From IMG/VR virus record IMGVR_UViG_2609459834_000005: DNA of 45,466 nt. One strand, 5' to 3'. Positions 32,498 through 39,943 of this stretch are shown here, piece by piece. The DNA comes from a virus (lineage: Duplodnaviria > Heunggongvirae > Uroviricota > Caudoviricetes). Made by a program: the position numbers and the translations under genes. Every line of letters starts with the position of its first letter. Position 1 is the first letter of the stretch. The notes below the pieces were generated by a model. That model made no database searches and was not told the DNA's origin. It worked only from the letters and a program-made list of their open reading frames with translations.

Positions 32498-32749
32498 TTA
32501 TTCTCCTGAAAAAGCAGAAAAGCCAGCTTTTATTCCGATCTCTTTCAATGCCTGTAATGAAGTGACAAACTCACCTTCGCGCAAGATAAATCCGTCCGTG
32601 ACCCGAGCATCCACAAAATTAATTAACGCAGCCCCATTCTTTCGCAAACACATAATGCGGTAATGACTAACAAGATTTCCATTTTCAACGCACACAGCAT
32701 AGAGGCCATCTTCACAAAAAATTTTACGCAGTTCTTCGATGTTCATCAT
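32498..32749 (-). CDS. hypothetical protein (83 aa); possibly Rem by length and position
   Basis: Track ORF between hokD terminator and ydfU; identity not recognised. Confidence 0.4.
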   Translation of the reverse strand: MMNIEELRKIFCEDGLYAVCVENGNLVSHYRIMCLRKNGAALINFVDARVTDGFILREGEFVTSLQALKEIGIKAGFSAFSGE

Positions 32750-32868
32750 CAGAATCCTTCCGGATAATTAGCTCTCCCCTTTAAGGGACCATCCCTCTTA
32801 TCCCTGCGCGCTACTTAAGTATTTTTGATTCTATTCCGGCACCGTCCAGAACTTCAAACGCGTTGAAA

Positions 32869-32897
32869 ATAAAAACAAAAACCCGCCGAAGCGGGTT
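32869..32897 (-). terminator. rho-independent terminator after hokD
   Basis: acccgc-cgaa-gcgggt hairpin followed on minus strand by TTTTTGTTTTT. Confidence 0.6.
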
Positions 32898-32966
32898 AAG
32901 TGCGGGTGCGTTGAGGATGCCTGCCACATCAGAGGTGGCGAGGGATTTCTCCCCCGCCGGGTCTCT

Positions 32967-33122
32967 TACTCCTCAGGTTCGTAAGCTGTGAAGACAGCGA
33001 CCTCCGTCTGGCCGGTTCGGATTCGTACCTCGCAGAGGTCTTTCCTCGTTACCAGTGCCGTCACTATGACGGTTAAACAGATGACGATCAGGGCGATTAA
33101 CATCGCCTTTTGCTGCTTCATA
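32967..33122 (-). CDS. hokD: Hok-family type I toxin HokD/RelF (51 aa)
   Basis: Hand translation gives MKQQKAMLIALIVICLTVIVTALVTRKDLCEVRIRTGQTEVAVFTAYEPEE. Confidence 0.9.
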
Positions 33123-33192
33123 GCCTGCTTCTCCTGTCAACGCAAAGCAGAAGTGTCACCTTCGGTGCGAAACAGAGATGTCATGCTTTGGT

Positions 33193-33480
33193 TCAGAGAA
33201 TGCGTTTGACCGCCTCGCTATATACTTCCGAGCGTTCTCTTTTCCCAACAGAAATCACGAAAACGACAACTTTCTCGTCTATAACCTGGTATACAAGGCG
33301 ATAGCCTGAAGACCGGAGCTTAATCTTGTAACAATCAGGCATACCACGGAGCTTGTTTGCTTCAATCCGGGGTGACTCAAGTACTTCAACCAGCTTCTTT
33401 TTCAACTGTTCACGTACCGTCGAGCCCAGCTTTCGCCATTCCTTTAGTGCCCGCTCGTCAAAATCCAGAAAATACGCCAT
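33193..33480 (-). CDS. relE: mRNA interferase toxin RelE
   Basis: 95-aa sequence matches remembered RelE. Confidence 0.92.
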   Translation of the reverse strand: MAYFLDFDERALKEWRKLGSTVREQLKKKLVEVLESPRIEANKLRGMPDCYKIKLRSSGYRLVYQVIDEKVVVFVISVGKRERSEVYSEAVKRIL

Positions 33481-33719
33481 CAGAGTTCATCCAGCGTCAC
33501 ACGTACTGGCTTAGGATTACGAAGCCGTTCTTTCACTATCTCCACAAGTTCAGCATCTTCATCACTCAGGAGTGTCTGTTTGAACGGCAAGCGTTCATTG
33601 TCAGCGATATACTCGAGCATGAGACGAAGCGCTTCAGAAGGAGTTACACCCATTTTTTCAAGCGCGGCGTAAGAACGCGCTTTAAGTTCATCGTCAATAC
33701 GCAGGTTAATGCTACCCAT
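33480..33719 (-). CDS. relB: antitoxin RelB
   Basis: 79-aa sequence matches remembered RelB. Confidence 0.92.
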   Translation of the reverse strand: MGSINLRIDDELKARSYAALEKMGVTPSEALRLMLEYIADNERLPFKQTLLSDEDAELVEIVKERLRNPKPVRVTLDEL

Positions 33720-33730
33720 GTCTTACACCT

Positions 33731-33756
33731 CTTGTAATTACAAATGTCATTACAAG
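33731..33756 (-). promoter_or_regulatory. relBE operator-like palindrome (CTTGTAAT...ATTACAAG)
   Basis: 26-bp region with inverted 8-mers just upstream of relB start. Confidence 0.55.
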
Positions 33757-34049
33757 TATCGCACTACAACATGCTTAGGGCAAGTCACGAAGGAAGTCAG
33801 AAAGTAGTCGTAAGAACGGTGATCACTGTCCGCTTTGTGCCAGGAGCAGCCATTGCTAAGTCCATCCTGTATTGTGCAGGTCAGCTCGTTTTTAAAGAGT
33901 CCGGCCATCATCTTACTGGTACAGACACCATATACTTTGTGACGGTCAGGCTACATATGCACAACTCAACTTATTCATCTATTTTTTGCTTTAGCATGTC
34001 AGTGTTGCTTTCTCGTCGGCGGGTGAGCGGTGACCTGACCTGTCGATAA
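33744..34049 (+). CDS. hypothetical protein (101 aa), YdfV-like by position and length
   Basis: Track ORF between relB and flxA. Confidence 0.35.
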   Translation: MSLQVSHYNMLRASHEGSQKVVVRTVITVRFVPGAAIAKSILYCAGQLVFKESGHHLTGTDTIYFVTVRLHMHNSTYSSIFCFSMSVLLSRRRVSGDLTCR

Positions 34050-34200
34050 AGGAACGTAGCACGTTTTATGCAACACCCGCATGCGGCAGAAAATTATTGC
34101 CGAACGTTTACCCCTGTCAACAAGCTTTACTTTCTGAGGCGCGCCAGCCCGCGAGGAAAACAATCTGAACATCAAACAATTAATGACACAAGAAATACGA

Positions 34201-34227
34201 TTAAAGATTTTTTTGTGCATGCCGATA
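34201..34227 (+). promoter_or_regulatory. sigma-28 (FliA)-type promoter for flxA: TAAAGATT-N11-GCCGATAG
   Basis: Close match to TAAAGTTT-N11-GCCGATAA, ~25 nt upstream of flxA start. Confidence 0.6.
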
Positions 34228-34251
34228 GTGCTTTTTTAAAAGGAGAAATCT

Positions 34252-34584
34252 ATGTCTGTCACAATTCAGGGAAATACCTCAACCGTTATTTCAAACAACT
34301 CCGCCCCGGAAGGAACATCAGAAATAGCCAAAATCACAAGACAAATTCAGGTGCTGACTGAAAAGCTTGGGAAAATCTCATCGGAAGAGGGGATGACGAC
34401 ACAGCAGAAAAAAGAAATGGCTGCATTGGTACAGAAGCAAATTGAAAGCCTCAGGGCTCAACTGGAGCAGTTGTTAAGGCAGCAGGCAGAGAAAAAGAAT
34501 AAAGACGCGACAGTTCAGCCTGATAAAAAAGAAGAGAAAAAAGACGATACAAATACCGCTGGCACCATTGATATTTACGTCTAA
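34252..34584 (+). CDS. flxA: FlxA (FliA-regulated protein)
   Basis: 110 aa MSVTIQGNTSTVISNNSAPEG..., matches remembered FlxA. Confidence 0.9.
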   Translation: MSVTIQGNTSTVISNNSAPEGTSEIAKITRQIQVLTEKLGKISSEEGMTTQQKKEMAALVQKQIESLRAQLEQLLRQQAEKKNKDATVQPDKKEEKKDDTNTAGTIDIYV

Positions 34585-34598
34585 GTGACAGCCGTATT

Positions 34599-34625
34599 GT
34601 GGCCCTCATCGGGCCACTTTTCGCC
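34599..34625 (+). terminator. rho-independent terminator after flxA
   Basis: gtggccc-tcatc-gggccac hairpin followed by TTTT. Confidence 0.6.
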
Positions 34626-34999
34626 ATCAGCCTTTTCTTTAAAGACATATTATCTTTGTATCATTTCTGATAGTTAACATTACAAGATATAAGTAATGGA
34701 CGCACTCCCAATTAGTCTATTTAAATCGCCACGAGTTTAACTGACAACCCATGATCAATTATGAATTGCAACTATTTCTGTAGTCACTTTTGTGGGGACA
34801 GTCCACAAAACTGCCAACTTCCGCTTCTTGCTCTTAGCGGACATTAGCATAGGCTATTTACCATAACGCCTCATTACGCGCACCGCCCAGACTGACTCAG
34901 CGCGTTTATGGCATATCCCCGGTAAAACAAGTAACAAACCACCCGAAAATGAACATCAGAAACGCGACTTAAGAATCTACCCTATGAATGGATATGCAC

Positions 35000-36400
35000 T
35001 CAACCGAATCGATCTTGGTTTCAATCTATTTTATCGGGATCAGGCTTCTTTTTAGGTAACTTCGGGGGCTTAACTTGCTGATGACTTTGCGTTCGGCGCG
35101 TAAGCCAGGGATGGTCAGCTTTAGATTTAACATAGTATTTTGAGCGTAAATCAATACGGGCATTATCCACTCGTTCATGGACACTCTTTTCATCATCCAG
35201 TGGTATAGGCTCCGGGCCATCAACATACTTTTCCCAGCCCAGCGCTTTCCCGTCATACAGAACGTTAATTTCACCGTCAAAGTTCTCACATACAGTAACA
35301 ACCGAATGCCTAAGTCGATATCCCCGGCCCTCACTGCGTACCTGAAACGCACTGCTTTTGTACTGGAAAGTGAGATTTTTAGACAGAACGCGCTTCGCCT
35401 GTAGGCTGAAGATATAACCCAGTTCCTCTTCAGAATGGTGCACATCAAGATGAGCATTATCAGTAGTACGAGGCGACGTAGCGAACCGGTTGTTATAGGC
35501 TTCAATAAAGGTCGGCAACCATGCATTTGCTGTTTCAATATCACTGATATTCTGAAGCCGCATTTCTTTGACCAGCCTGTCCTGTAGTGTCTGATTGGCG
35601 CGCTCTACCCGCCCTTTTGCCTGCGGGCTGTTGGCATGGATTGGCTCGATGCCCAGTGTCTTTATCGCACGAGTGAACTGGGTCAGCTCACCTTCCCGCT
35701 CTGGGTTATTTACCCTGAATATACTGTGTCTATCAGAGTAGAGAGCGAGCGGTACGCCATGATCATTAAGGTAACCCCGGAGGGTTTCCATGTAAGCCCG
35801 GGTTGTTTCAGCAGGCACAAAACGCAACGCCATCAACGCACTGGTGGCATCATCAATGAAAACGATCAGTGTACATCTGGGGCCTCGATTTTCAAACCAG
35901 TCATGAGGTGAGCCATCAATCTGGATCAGTTCACCGTAAGATGGTCGTCGCATGCGGCGTTGATATATACGGGCAATTTTACGACGGCGTTCACGCCATA
36001 ACCCCTCTTCTATCATCCACTTTCTGAGAGTTTCAACGGATAAAGATAAACCGTGTATCTCGCGCAATTTTTCGCACGCAAACGTAGGTCCAAAATCAGC
36101 GTAACGGCCTTTGAGGAGTGAAATTACTGTTGCTCTGAATTCAGTAGAAAAGGAATTATTAGGACGCTTTCCACGTCGGTGGGAAACCAGACCAGAAGGC
36201 CCTTCATTTCTATACCGTTGCACCAGACGTTTAACCTGCCGAATAGAAATGCCAATGCGTGCCGCAGCTTGTTCCTGAGTAATATGTCGATTAATTGACT
36301 CCTGAATAATCTGAAGTCGGTGGAGTTCCTTATGACTCATCGTAACAGTCTCTTTGATCATGAAAAATCCCCCAGAGAATTGTCTGGGGACATTTTAGAA
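35000..36400 (-). mobile_element. inserted IS-like element with a single DDE transposase gene (IS481/ISNCY-like); ends not resolved
   Basis: 446-aa transposase ORF; flanking ORF appears truncated at the element edge. Confidence 0.5.
35021..36361 (-). CDS. DDE-type transposase (N-terminal HTH, integrase-core-like catalytic domain)
   Basis: Track ORF 446 aa; family assignment uncertain. Confidence 0.75.
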   Translation of the reverse strand: MIKETVTMSHKELHRLQIIQESINRHITQEQAAARIGISIRQVKRLVQRYRNEGPSGLVSHRRGKRPNNSFSTEFRATVISLLKGRYADFGPTFACEKLREIHGLSLSVETLRKWMIEEGLWRERRRKIARIYQRRMRRPSYGELIQIDGSPHDWFENRGPRCTLIVFIDDATSALMALRFVPAETTRAYMETLRGYLNDHGVPLALYSDRHSIFRVNNPEREGELTQFTRAIKTLGIEPIHANSPQAKGRVERANQTLQDRLVKEMRLQNISDIETANAWLPTFIEAYNNRFATSPRTTDNAHLDVHHSEEELGYIFSLQAKRVLSKNLTFQYKSSAFQVRSEGRGYRLRHSVVTVCENFDGEINVLYDGKALGWEKYVDGPEPIPLDDEKSVHERVDNARIDLRSKYYVKSKADHPWLTRRTQSHQQVKPPKLPKKKPDPDKID

Positions 36401-36814
36401 TGGTTCAAAGGGGACATTACAGCTTGGTGTTAACAATAGCCTGCTTCTCCTTGCCTTCCGGCACTCGCGACAGATTATGTTTAGACGACTGTCGTAGCGA
36501 CGTATTTCTCCGTCAGGTAATGACCAGATAAGGTCCGGATCAACCACAGCAGGTTTCTTCACCTTTGCCCTCGAGAGTTTTTTGCGGGCGTTTTGCCAGT
36601 CCTTACGCGCCTGTTCAGACGGGAATAACCCGTAACCAGAGCTGTATACATCGCCACTGGCAACCAGCTCTCTGGCCAGAACGCTCATCAGATATCTTGT
36701 TGCCCCAGTTTTAGCTTCCAGTTGTCGTAACGTCTCGCGCCCACTCTGGCGTACGAGTTCCACCACCTGCCCTTTAATTTTTTCCCGCTCTTCTTGTGTA
36801 AAAACTTTTGCCAC
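36395..36814 (-). pseudogene. phage replication-region gene, probably 3'-truncated by the transposase insertion
   Basis: 139-aa ORF ending within a few nt of the presumed IS boundary; sits at the lambda P position. Confidence 0.35.
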
Positions 36815-36854
36815 AAGTCCTCCTGAACATTACTTTATACCCTAAAATCAACAC

Positions 36855-37874
36855 TTATCCCCTGAAACCAGGCGGAATTTCTGTATCCGGTTCAGAAATA
36901 TGATTCACACAACGCTGTACAGGTGAACGTCCCAGGCGGATGACCAGTTCGTCCCATTTTTCGCGGAGTTTTGACGGGCTCATGATGTTTTTTACCCAGA
37001 ATTGATCTCGCTGTACCCGACCAAACATTTCGCAAATTTGTCTGTGGCTTCTGCCATCCAGCATCCGCATTGTGCGCACGTCATTGGCCCAGGCTGTCCA
37101 GTTAGGCTCTTTTGGTCGCATGATCTCTCCATCGTCGCTGGCAGCCTGTTCGTAAAGGTTCACGATCCGCCCCCAAATCCACTGCGCACACGCCAAATCC
37201 TCCCTGCTACCCCACTGGCGTTTTTTCGCACTAAACACAACCGCGTCGGGGTTCCGGGTTAAAAAATCCTGTTCAGCGGTCTGCTGGTCCGGTTGCGAAG
37301 CTTCCGGACGAAAAGTGTTTTTATTCTCTGTAGTAATCTCTGTTGTATTCTCTGTAAGATCATCAGGCCATTTTGACCCGATGACATTGGGTCGTTTTGA
37401 ACCAATGGAGCGTTTCATTTTGACCTCTTCCATCGTGTCATTTTGACCTGATGGAGCGGCGCATTTTAAACCGATGGATTCGCTCAATTTGCCACCATCT
37501 AAAAGCTCGCTCCCGTAGTTGATCGTGTAGAAATTGGTCATATCGCGCTTTGATTTATTGAGCTTTTCACAACGCAAAAGCCCCAGCGTTTTCAGACTTG
37601 CAAACGCGCGCTTTAACGTTGACTCTGACCAGAATGGGAACTGTTCCAGCCATTGTTCCGTTGTGTTGTAAATCCAGCGAACACCATCACATTCCATGCC
37701 GGAATTGGTATCTCTCAACCAGCAATGCAACTGCTGCAACACAATGGCTTCATTTAAGCCAATCTTCATCGCAAGCTGTGTGTTTATAACCAGTGGGCGT
37801 TCAGCAAAAAGAAGGCTCATAATTCCATCCAGCTTTTTGTTGGTATTGCTGTCGATACGCAAGTTTGAAAGCAA
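36855..37874 (-). CDS. replication initiator O-like protein
   Basis: 339-aa ORF downstream of the cro/cI-like pair, with internal iterons. Confidence 0.65.
   Translation of the reverse strand: MLSNLRIDSNTNKKLDGIMSLLFAERPLVINTQLAMKIGLNEAIVLQQLHCWLRDTNSGMECDGVRWIYNTTEQWLEQFPFWSESTLKRAFASLKTLGLLRCEKLNKSKRDMTNFYTINYGSELLDGGKLSESIGLKCAAPSGQNDTMEEVKMKRSIGSKRPNVIGSKWPDDLTENTTEITTENKNTFRPEASQPDQQTAEQDFLTRNPDAVVFSAKKRQWGSREDLACAQWIWGRIVNLYEQAASDDGEIMRPKEPNWTAWANDVRTMRMLDGRSHRQICEMFGRVQRDQFWVKNIMSPSKLREKWDELVIRLGRSPVQRCVNHISEPDTEIPPGFRG
37325..37480. repeat. origin-like iterons inside the O-like gene: five ~16-bp CATTTTGACC-GATGG repeats at ~23-bp spacing plus three 12-bp TCTCTGT-type repeats
   Basis: Direct repeats read by eye at 37369, 37393, 37415, 37439, 37462 and 37325-37360. 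Confidence 0.55.
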
Positions 37875-38322
37875 TTGCTTTTTCTATAAGTTCGTCAGTT
37901 TCACGATCCACTACGGCAGGATCAGCAAAAAGCAGTCCGGACTCCACCACATCGCCATATTCTTTGTTTAACCCGGCGATCATGTACGTGATGCTTTTTC
38001 CGTCACTAATTTCACGATACAACCTGAAATCATTAATCCGAATAGCCTCCATAATTGCAGGCACTAGCGCCGTGAACTTTTCACGCTTATCCCTGGTGTC
38101 GATAGCCTTCCAGCGTTCGAATATCTTCACTCGATTAACGCCAAGTGCTCGCTGATCAACCGCGCCACCTTCATCTGTGACACGCTGAACATCGATGTTC
38201 GGGCGCTCTTTCAAAGCCCAGAATGCTTCAGTGATTAATATCGTCGCCTGCTCCTGTGTCATTCCTGGTCGACATATCCAGGCATCCAGAGCCTCACGAG
38301 CCTGTTCAGGAGTGATTTTCAT
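37801..38322 (-). CDS. YdaT-like protein (cII position)
   Basis: 173-aa ORF; segment RWKAIDTRDKREKFTALVPAIMEAI resembles Rac YdaT as remembered. Confidence 0.45.
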   Translation of the reverse strand: MKITPEQAREALDAWICRPGMTQEQATILITEAFWALKERPNIDVQRVTDEGGAVDQRALGVNRVKIFERWKAIDTRDKREKFTALVPAIMEAIRINDFRLYREISDGKSITYMIAGLNKEYGDVVESGLLFADPAVVDRETDELIEKAIAFKLAYRQQYQQKAGWNYEPSFC

Positions 38323-39367: not shown

Positions 39368-39943
39368 ATGGATTTCGACACAATCATGGAAAAGGCTTAC
39401 GAAGAATACTTCGAAGGCCTTGCCGAAGGCGAAGAAGCTCTCAGCTTCAGTGAGTTTAAACAGGCACTCAGAATAAGAATGTGCTCTCACAATGACGCGG
39501 AGCACAAATATGAGAAGCAAAATCAGACCGCAGAAAATTTTGTTCTGGAACCCGGAGAAACGCTTTTCAAAATTCCCGTTACGTGCCCCATTTGCGGTTT
39601 TACATCAGAAGAACTTGACGACTCCTGTAACAATCAGGAAACAACCAAGTATGTCGAAGATGATACCGAGTGCGCACGAAGAACGATTATATCCACGAGT
39701 CCAAACTCCAGGACCAATAAATCTCACTATGAGAGGGTGATTAATCCACTCCCCCAAACCAATAAAAAAGATGCCGGAGGACAAAAAACCCAATGGAACA
39801 ACGGGATATCTGTCAAAAAAAGACGTTCCATTAAAGACAAACAACGCAGCGCCAACAACTGTAAGCGCTTTATACCAGTAATCAATTTTCATGTTCTTAA
39901 GCGGATTTATTGGTGGTTGCGACATTGCTTAATGAATCCTTAA
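39368..39943 (+). CDS. YdfB/YdfC-like protein as one contiguous 191-aa ORF with a CPICG zinc-finger-like motif
   Basis: Track ORF 39326..39943; start set at ATG 39368 right after ydfA stop. Confidence 0.55.
   Translation: MDFDTIMEKAYEEYFEGLAEGEEALSFSEFKQALRIRMCSHNDAEHKYEKQNQTAENFVLEPGETLFKIPVTCPICGFTSEELDDSCNNQETTKYVEDDTECARRTIISTSPNSRTNKSHYERVINPLPQTNKKDAGGQKTQWNNGISVKKRRSIKDKQRSANNCKRFIPVINFHVLKRIYWWLRHCLMNP

Follow-up and report, generated by a model that had tools for sequence, protein, structure and literature searches.

ISEsa1 is described as an insertion sequence (IS) of 1,609 bp, with inverted repeats (IRs) matching at 15 of 22 positions and no detectable duplication of the target, and was placed in a separate (third) subgroup of the IS1202 family with no target given (Harmer, Pong & Hall 2023, PMC10132070). 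As for the relBE toxin-antitoxin genes, PMC5120126 cites the co-transcription of hokD with relBE in Escherichia coli K-12, and PMC6379469, citing Ramisetty and Santhosh 2016, states that relBE was integrated at hokD by horizontal transfer. The vehicle of relBE at hokD, its ends and its duplication are not described in the papers that could be searched, nor was any description of a hok-targeting or relBE-carrying IS1202 element found there. Here we analysed a locus of the Caudoviricetes record IMGVR_UViG_2609459834_000005 (45,466 nt, hereafter the window), where a 3,301-bp IS1202-family transposon carrying relBE lies at the start of hokD and adjoins a DUF977/LygF open reading frame (ORF) with a foreign 3' end. 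It is very probable that the transposon inserted at the hokD start and that a separate microhomology deletion clipped the DUF977 gene. The basis is sequence analysis throughout.

The mobile unit extends from 33135 to 36435 and comprises the left IR (IRL), the transposase gene, flxA, ydfV, relB, relE and the right IR (IRR). Its left end was defined by comparing copies from E. coli prophages and plasmids, Klebsiella, Enterobacter, Kluyvera, Citrobacter and others (related loci are designated by L numbers): every independent copy starts matching at TGTTAACACCAAGCTGTAATGTCCCC, that is from TGTTAAC inward, with 36435 as the outermost base (IRL, 36410–36435, minus strand). At the other end, the IRR (33135–33160, minus strand) reads ...GGTGACACTTCTGCTTTGCGTTGACA-3' with 33135 as the outermost base, and the same terminus was found in L003, L092, L093 and L083. 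The two repeats are of the 5'-TGT...ACA-3' type (TGTTAACACC... from 36435 and ...GCGTTGACA ending at 33135), matching at 19 of 26 positions, or 22 of 30 over a longer span, in keeping with the TGT...ACA ends and IRs of approximately 24–29 bp of IS1202 elements. The inner part of the IR is repeated at the left end as TAATGTCCCC and AAATGTCCCC, 24 nt apart (a second AATGTCCCC motif), and at matching positions of the right end as AAGTGTCACC and AGATGTCATG; such a repeated motif, itself a feature of IS1202 elements, is a putative transposase binding site.

An exact 15-bp repeat, GGAGAAGCAGGCTAT, adjoins both termini, a length falling within the classes known for the IS1202 family (5–6, 15–17 or 24–29 bp). 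Its left copy (36436–36450, minus strand), which contains the hokD Shine-Dalgarno sequence and spacer and forms the 3' end of the hok/sok leader, abuts the IRL in the junction ...GGCAA GGAGAAGCAGGCTAT / TGTTAAC, and the final two bases of the right copy (33120–33134, minus strand) start the hokD start codon in the junction downstream of relE, which reads ...GCGTTGACA / GGAGAAGCAGGCTAT / G AAG CAG (hokD). The original prediction on this DNA had recommended a search for the IS family and the terminal repeats, both of which are now resolved together with the duplication; the limit that it placed at about 35000 has to be moved to 33135, and the transposase gene is found inside a 3.3-kb cargo transposon in place of a simple IS.

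Past the transposase gene, the independent copies remain alike for approximately 1.6 kb from the left end and then diverge, at about 34816–34830, into different cargo. The boundary between transposase module and variable cargo coincides with a hairpin, GTCCGCT...AGCGGA (34816–34845, minus strand). In the window the cargo consists of flxA (34252–34584, plus strand; Pfam FlxA and annotation) and ydfV (33744–34049, plus strand; annotation), both between IRL and IRR, and relB-relE (33193–33719, minus strand; annotation) constitute a conserved right arm. The published right end of ISEsa1 would map at about 34827 (36435 - 1609 + 1, using the length of PMC10132070); since neither a complement of the IRL nor a duplication was found there, the window does not hold a self-contained 1,609-bp ISEsa1.

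Other candidate ends were considered and rejected. A right end near 34816–34830 was discarded, the similarity of the left flank to that region not being a duplication, and a blind inverted-repeat search of 34400–36900 yielded no credible ends, the interval not reaching as far as the right end. A duplication of 27–28 bp, as expected for the IS1202 subgroup proper, was also rejected, the 27-bp difference in length seen in some genomes being an in-frame deletion at 36273–36299; H67–H69, taken as possible empty sites or IS ends, turned out to be mosaic junctions or IS26 truncations. The boundary hairpin (AATGTCCGCT...AGCGGA(A/C)) holds the transposase-site-like AATGTCC in both orientations, and might serve in termination or, as a site of recombination or assembly, in the exchange of cargo.

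The transposase gene (35021–36361, minus strand), intact and coding for 446 aa, is of the ISEsa1 type. The encoded protein matches the NCBIfam profile NF033594 with 465.5 bits (cut-off 250) over positions 1–365 of 368, as expected for a full-length DDE transposase of the IS1202/ISNCY type, and the Pfam matches to HTH_28/29/32 and rve_3 agree with the large transposases of the IS1202 family (394–507 aa, with an N-terminal helix-turn-helix, HTH). It shows two differences from the plasmid copies L009 and L014, named 'IS1202-like element ISEsa1 family transposase' by the annotation pipeline PGAP. In the E. coli O26 record, PGAP splits the intact gene into a 'pseudogene, missing C-terminus' (35291–36361) and 'ydfW' (35021–35170), the latter lying in frame with the transposase and corresponding to its codons 398–446. 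As K-12 ydfW is a fragment of the transposase, its name misleads the annotation of the intact copies, and the splitting of the latter was apparently carried over from K-12 as an artefact. The 27-bp in-frame deletion mentioned above, located in the N-terminal HTH region, is found in many E. coli copies (e.g., L002), and the L004 transposase has a frameshift near window position 36000; the copy in the window is intact and may be among those still active.

The transposon entered at the hokD start codon, 11 nt past the GGAG of the Shine-Dalgarno sequence, and in an alignment with an intact hok locus the IRL begins at the hok ATG. Of the parts of a hok locus (ORF and mok/sok leader), the window holds the hokD toxin ORF (32966–33121, minus strand), split off from its leader by the transposon, and only the last 20–29 nt of the leader (36436–36464). 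In undeleted relatives the full hok leader abuts the IRL, and full-length Rfam RF01794 (sok) matches stop exactly at the IRL in 8 distinct contexts (L002, L003, L004, L014, L018/L030, L021, L032 and L047); an Rfam scan of window positions 32500–37000 gave no sok/hok (RF01794) match, with weak isrK/rsmX-like matches around the 3' terminator of hokD as its sole yield. A 383-nt empty site, reconstructed from the hokD leader, a single copy of the target and the hokD ORF, was found uninterrupted, at 99.5% identity, in a Qin-like remnant of strain CP53 (CP033096), where the ORF is contiguous with the leader and a single target copy, and its sequence is present at a coverage of at least 80% in 4,032 of 5,426 genomes. 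As the empty site is uninterrupted in other genomes, the 15-bp duplication is no chance repeat.

The isrK-like match, a weak one (25 bits, E = 0.019), covers window positions 32876–32957 (minus strand), in the terminator region 3' of hokD. In Kluyvera, an isrO match of 58.8 bits, above the gathering score, overlaps an ISEsa1-type IRL junction (L024 2337–2450, minus strand). The isrO and isrK families of Rfam may include mobile-element or hok 3' sequences.

On the opposite side of the element, the ORF at 36395–36814 (minus strand; 139 aa) proved real as called. DUF977 (PF06163) is its sole Pfam match (residues 1–121, profile positions 1–115 of 134); among PHROGs, it matches a DNA-binding protein family and PHROG 142 'Ren-like exclusion protein', of which it spans positions 1–98 of 116, compared with 1–115 of 116 for the intact 140-aa homologue of L004. 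Pfam positions 116–134 and PHROG positions 99–116 are absent, hence the ORF is not a full-length member. No match was obtained in the NCBIfam profile search, and no homology with lambda P or with a DnaC/IstB AAA+ loader was detected by Pfam, NCBIfam or PHROGs. Phage records name this gene LygF or Ren-like and give it 132–140 aa. Among the 120 listed of 851 homologues, most are 140–141 aa long, and typical ones align to 87–88% of the query, approximately residues 1–121, with few reaching 93–98%. Alignment to intact homologues, the other check indicated in the original prediction, placed the change precisely: residues 1–120 match the 140–141-aa proteins and the last 19 do not. The native part comprises codons 1–120 (36455–36814, minus strand; Pfam and PHROG matches and, from 36455 on, a DNA sequence ≈96% identical to DUF977 of L004), and the foreign tail 19 codons plus the stop (36395–36454, minus strand), of which 36436–36454 derive from the hok-leader remnant and 36395–36435 from the transposon IRL. 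The 139-aa protein is thus a truncated, chimeric member of DUF977, with about 14% of the protein affected.

The adjacent gene codes for an intact O-like replication initiator of 321 aa (36855–37820, minus strand), matching PHROG 391 'replication initiation O-like' (4.6e-92, profile positions 11–298 of 298) and 99.1% identical, across 321 of 321 aa, to a protein of phage mEp460_ev081. LygF directly follows the O-like gene in the isolated phage mEp460, where a P gene is absent; given this order, the ORF at 36395–36814 does not occupy a lambda-P position, the module being one without P. Since the O-like initiator is intact, prophage replication would not be disabled by the insertion and the deletion.

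How the DUF977 gene acquired its foreign end emerges from relatives retaining the parental order. In L004 and L002, the succession is O-like gene, DUF977 (140 aa), SAM methyltransferase, DUF7167, a hypothetical gene, hokD leader, transposon and hokD ORF, and the 3' end of DUF977 lies 2 kb away from the transposon. Compared with L004, the match on the side of the transposon extends to L004 position 5816 and the one on the side of DUF977 starts at 7796, the two overlapping by 10 bp in the window. This junction (36455–36464) consists of a microhomology, CTTCCGGCAC, for which the parental copies match at 9 of 10 positions (the leader copy being CTTTCGGCAC); the repeat copies are at L004 5807–5816 and 7796–7805, leading to a deletion of 1,989 bp. 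The last 20 DUF977 codons, three genes of the nin region and all but 20–29 bp of the hok leader were removed, and in the three-way alignment the intact terminus ...ICRECRK-SEVMQRILAFYQGNFQDVAQ is replaced in the window by ...ICRECRK-ARRSRLLLTPSCNVPFEPF. Residues 121–126 of the chimera come from the hok-leader/duplication remnant, residues 127–139 and the stop from 41 nt of the IRL. The same DUF977::leader junction is shared by 105 of 5,426 complete E. coli genomes. In O111 strains, a different deletion has joined a complete DUF977 reading frame, without frameshift, to the central part of the hokD ORF (L097 1232–1764, E. coli O111:NM 08-4377), giving a 177-aa fusion protein (P0020) with both Pfam DUF977 and Hok/Gef; the interval between DUF977 and hokD seems prone to deletions.

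The DUF977::leader junction occurs also without the transposon, in three complete genomes and several draft contigs. A 14-bp tandem duplication, with AAGGAGAAGCAGGC present twice, is carried by L094 (4330–4420, GCA_002764735.1) and by strains 10205 and 03_3503, and a 9-bp one, with AGGAGAAGC present twice, by strain 12689 (L096 1590–1625, NZ_CP074982.1), whose prophage is otherwise that of the window; NZ_CP074987.1 and NZ_CP074951.1 are among the records with such alleles. The 9-bp duplication fits a 4-bp CAGG microhomology, and simple slippage does not account for that of 14 bp. These alleles likely represent loss of the transposon after the deletion, their short duplications being footprints of excision or of deletion.

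Taken together, the locus very probably originated as follows. The ancestor was a Qin-like lambdoid prophage with an intact hokD locus (mok/sok leader and hok ORF) in the nin region, downstream of the O-like, DUF977/LygF, methyltransferase, DUF7167 and hypothetical genes. A 3,301-bp IS1202-family transposon entered the hokD start, duplicating 15 bp and parting the leader from the ORF, so that the hok ORF, with a duplicated Shine-Dalgarno sequence, came to lie directly behind relBE, in the relB-relE-hokD arrangement of K-12. The 1,989-bp deletion would have followed, the DUF977 frame now reading through the leader remnant and 41 nt of the IRL to give the 139-aa chimera. In the deleted allele, the hok promoter and leader would be lost and the transposase gene would follow the chimeric DUF977 ORF, whose stop is 33 nt from the transposase ATG, in the early rightward (pR) operon of the phage. 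From the comparisons above, we infer that the insertion preceded the deletion.

Other explanations of this locus have to be weighed. According to the original prediction, a simple IS had split a helicase-loader gene in the position of lambda P, leaving the prophage replication-defective and the remainder of the gene beyond the IS. The observation behind it stands as far as a transposase element does abut the ORF and the 3' end of the latter is altered, and the ORF, located after an O-like gene and against the transposase gene, does have a non-native C-terminus. However, truncation did not occur by insertion into the gene, and the edge of the element does not lie a few nt beyond the ORF (which is real, like the 446-aa DDE transposase) but inside it, the IRL edge at 36435 falling about 40 nt upstream of its stop. 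Moreover, a P/DnaC signature is lacking in what is a DUF977/LygF gene, mEp460 has the O-like gene and then LygF without P, the duplication and the empty site put the insertion in hokD and not in DUF977, hokD and not a continuation of DUF977 is found past the element, and in undeleted relatives the missing 3' end is 2 kb from it. A split loader gene is therefore scarcely credible, and a replication defect is not indicated with the 321-aa initiator at full length. IS elements are known to cause adjacent deletions, and an endpoint merely 20–29 bp from the transposon might recall such an event, in which the transposase would have made the 2-kb deletion by intramolecular transposition from the IRL into DUF977. 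Deletions of this kind, however, begin at the terminal base, while here the full 15-bp duplication and 5–14 further bases of flank survive, which argues against transposase action; the junction, in addition, falls within a 9/10-bp direct repeat of both parental sequences. This origin is hence very improbable, and illegitimate recombination or replication slippage, independent of the transposase, is inferred instead. As to the order of the events, the DUF977::hok-leader deletion might have come first and an independent hok-targeted insertion afterwards: the apparent site specificity makes recurrent insertion at one nucleotide plausible, and GGAG with its spacer is still present in the remaining 20–29 bp of leader. 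Yet the same transposon with the same 15-bp duplication occurs in deleted and undeleted prophages (99.6% identity over 3.3 kb), the transposon-less junction alleles that were found carry 9-bp or 14-bp duplications and none a clean single GGAGAAGCAGGCTATG, and the upstream leader hairpins, if needed for target recognition, would already have been gone. The reversed order appears unlikely, and insertion followed by deletion is the succession retained here.

The relation with hok is not limited to this prophage. In an E. coli plasmid (L003), the transposon sits in a different hok locus with its own 16–17-bp duplication of local sequence. The Klebsiella pneumoniae plasmid NZ_CP056374.1 (L092) contains a 12,843-bp element, organised as IRL, transposase, about 11 kb of cargo with ncrABCY nickel resistance among others, relB, relE and IRR and flanked by a perfect 16/16 duplication, and the Enterobacter hormaechei plasmid NZ_CP118384.1 (L093) contains one of 9,174 bp, whose duplication matches at 13 of 15 positions and precedes a hok ORF. 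In both of these elements relB-relE adjoins the IRR. A 13/15 duplication was found also in L083 which, with L025, was the only one among more than 25 related loci to include the right end within the 2.5 kb compared, longer stretches being compared for others. Between the transposase module and the relBE arm, L092 and L093 carry the nickel-resistance genes ncrA, B, C and Y with a chrB-domain gene and HupE/UreJ, or else oxidoreductase, MFS and regulator genes. Genes for metal resistance are moved on clinical plasmids by this transposon family.

Among close relatives (transposase at least 86% identical), approximately 10–11 of 16 distinct left flanks are hok leaders, and the IRL lies 11–12 nt after the hok GGAG, in one orientation, at a distance fixed within 1 nt in at least 10 different hok sequences. 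This pattern would indicate a preference of the transposon family for hok translation-initiation regions as targets. A more distant relative, with a transposase 62% identical, is a 1,449-bp IS present in at least 10 copies in Hahella sp. SMD15-11 (L033–L039, L042, L043 and L059); its ends are TGTTAGCC...GGGTTGACA, of ten copies analysed, nine show clear 15–17-bp duplications, and the target sequences bear no relation to hok. This IS is a clean, minimal member of the ISEsa1 subgroup.

Two further arrangements were observed near such ends. In Leclercia sp. EMC7 (L029 2386–2460), 10 nt separate an IRR ...GCGTTGACA from the IRL of another copy (TGTTAATCC...) that comes after it, so that two related elements stand in tandem, or head to tail. 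In Citrobacter portucalensis (L028 2400–2427), the left flank of the IRL shows the usual hok Shine-Dalgarno/ATG target in reverse complement (CATGGCCTTCTTCTCC), pointing either to an inversion between two elements or to a transposon that inserted the other way round.

The association with hok could also derive from homologous recombination between hok genes, or from selection after random insertion, instead of target choice. Hok loci are indeed multicopy and similar, the Hahella relative is found at varied sites, and cargo and flanks are mosaic. Against this, at each locus the two duplication copies match the local hok type as far as the termini of the element, while the element itself is 99% identical in L003 and in the window, and its position stays within 1 nt of GGAG + 11–12 nt across those different hok sequences. 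As the flanks follow the local hok type and the element is nearly identical between loci, transposition is favoured over homologous exchange, and an explanation by recombination or selection is rather doubtful. With target choice retained, we lean slightly towards a wider reading, in which the ISEsa1-type elements of Enterobacteriaceae would form a family of cargo transposons (3.3 to approximately 13 kb) with conserved IRL-transposase and relBE-IRR arms and 15–17-bp duplications, homing with a single orientation and 1-nt precision to the hok Shine-Dalgarno/start region on plasmids and prophages, and from which the relBEF of K-12 would descend as a decayed right arm.

Several points weigh against the account given here. 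Non-hok DNA flanks L017, L024, L044, L083 and the relatives of 78–81% identity; with several copies, these relatives and the Hahella IS in non-hok DNA, the hok preference is strong but not absolute. Duplications were checked in only a minority of the enterobacterial copies, those with the right end in the compared DNA, and ISEsa1 (ISfinder) was compared by its published length and IR score (PMC10132070), not by sequence. The order of the events is by parsimony only, and a site-specific element could have entered an already deleted prophage; the footprints of the transposon-free alleles could partly arise by slippage. Finally, DUF977/LygF may play a role in replication.

Regarding the wider setting, window positions 34200–37900 are 99.9% identical to E. 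coli O26:H11 str. 11368 (NC_013361.1), an identity reached also by many other O26 and Shiga toxin-producing E. coli genomes. The gene content includes tail, head and lysis genes, the Q antiterminator, ydfU, rem, hokD, relE, relB, ydfV and flxA and, after the latter, the transposase, DUF977, the 321-aa gene left unnamed in the annotation, a YdaT/cII-like gene, cro, repressor, dicB, exonuclease and xis. By these matches the whole window can be assigned to a Qin-like lambdoid prophage of E. coli O26:H11. The xis gene is truncated (43444–43536) by an IS66-family ISCro1 element (from 43567 on; region 43444–45466), and ydfB is partial (39368–39469). Should the prophage be defective, the evidence favours a failure of excision over one of replication.

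In the terms in which it was originally posed, the finding carries little weight: an ordinary microhomology deletion exchanged a short C-terminal part of the product of an accessory prophage gene, and a replication defect is not indicated. Its interest lies in the transposon. If the account holds, the insertion uncouples hok from its Sok-controlled leader, sets hok behind relBE and brings the transposase gene to a place after the promoter and leader of hok. The boundaries of ISEsa1 would be corrected, which would explain the lack of duplication reported for its IS1202 subgroup; a second target specificity, hok toxin start sites besides Xer/dif, would be added to the IS1202 family; and a vehicle would be identified for the exchange of relBE with nickel and other cargo between plasmids and prophages.

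Among the known systems, lambda ren/LygF (PHROG 142; DUF977) resembles the window ORF in the first 120 residues and in the position right after the replication gene(s), and differs in that the C-terminal ≈20 residues of both profiles are swapped for an unrelated sequence. ISEsa1 is the closest to the element itself: the window transposase is at least 99.5% identical to PGAP 'ISEsa1 family' proteins, the published 439-aa transposase equals the window ORF read from Met8, and the left end and the first ≈1.6 kb are common. On the contrary, the 1,609-bp point is in the window a mere point of divergence, and the unit with good IRs measures 3.3 kb (9–13 kb on plasmids) and includes cargo with relBE. 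The ISAjo2/ISAba32 subgroup of the IS1202 family, which targets dif/pdif XerC/D sites, is alike in transposase family, TGT...ACA ends, subterminal repeat of the inner IR and oriented insertion at a fixed distance from a recognisable sequence feature. It differs in the use of Xer sites and in a 5–6-bp duplication, whereas the window element uses the hok start region, duplicates 15–17 bp and has a toxin-antitoxin right arm and variable cargo. The ISTde1 subgroup of the same family shares the 15–17-bp duplication class, but the ISEsa1 transposase belongs to a separate subgroup according to PMC10132070, where no hok association or relBE cargo is described. Lastly, the relB-relE-hokD (relBEF) region of K-12 Qin has the same gene set as window positions 32966–34584. 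It differs in holding only the right part of the element (IRR, relBE, ydfV, flxA and the last 49 transposase codons, 'ydfW'): K-12 matches the window at 34650–35205 only and then breaks, owing to a deletion from approximately 35205 into the ydaT-like 'ydfX'. The sister elements and the hok-abutting relatives suggest a hok-targeting family of cargo transposons, through which the origin of relB-relE-hokD in E. coli K-12 can be explained in concrete terms.

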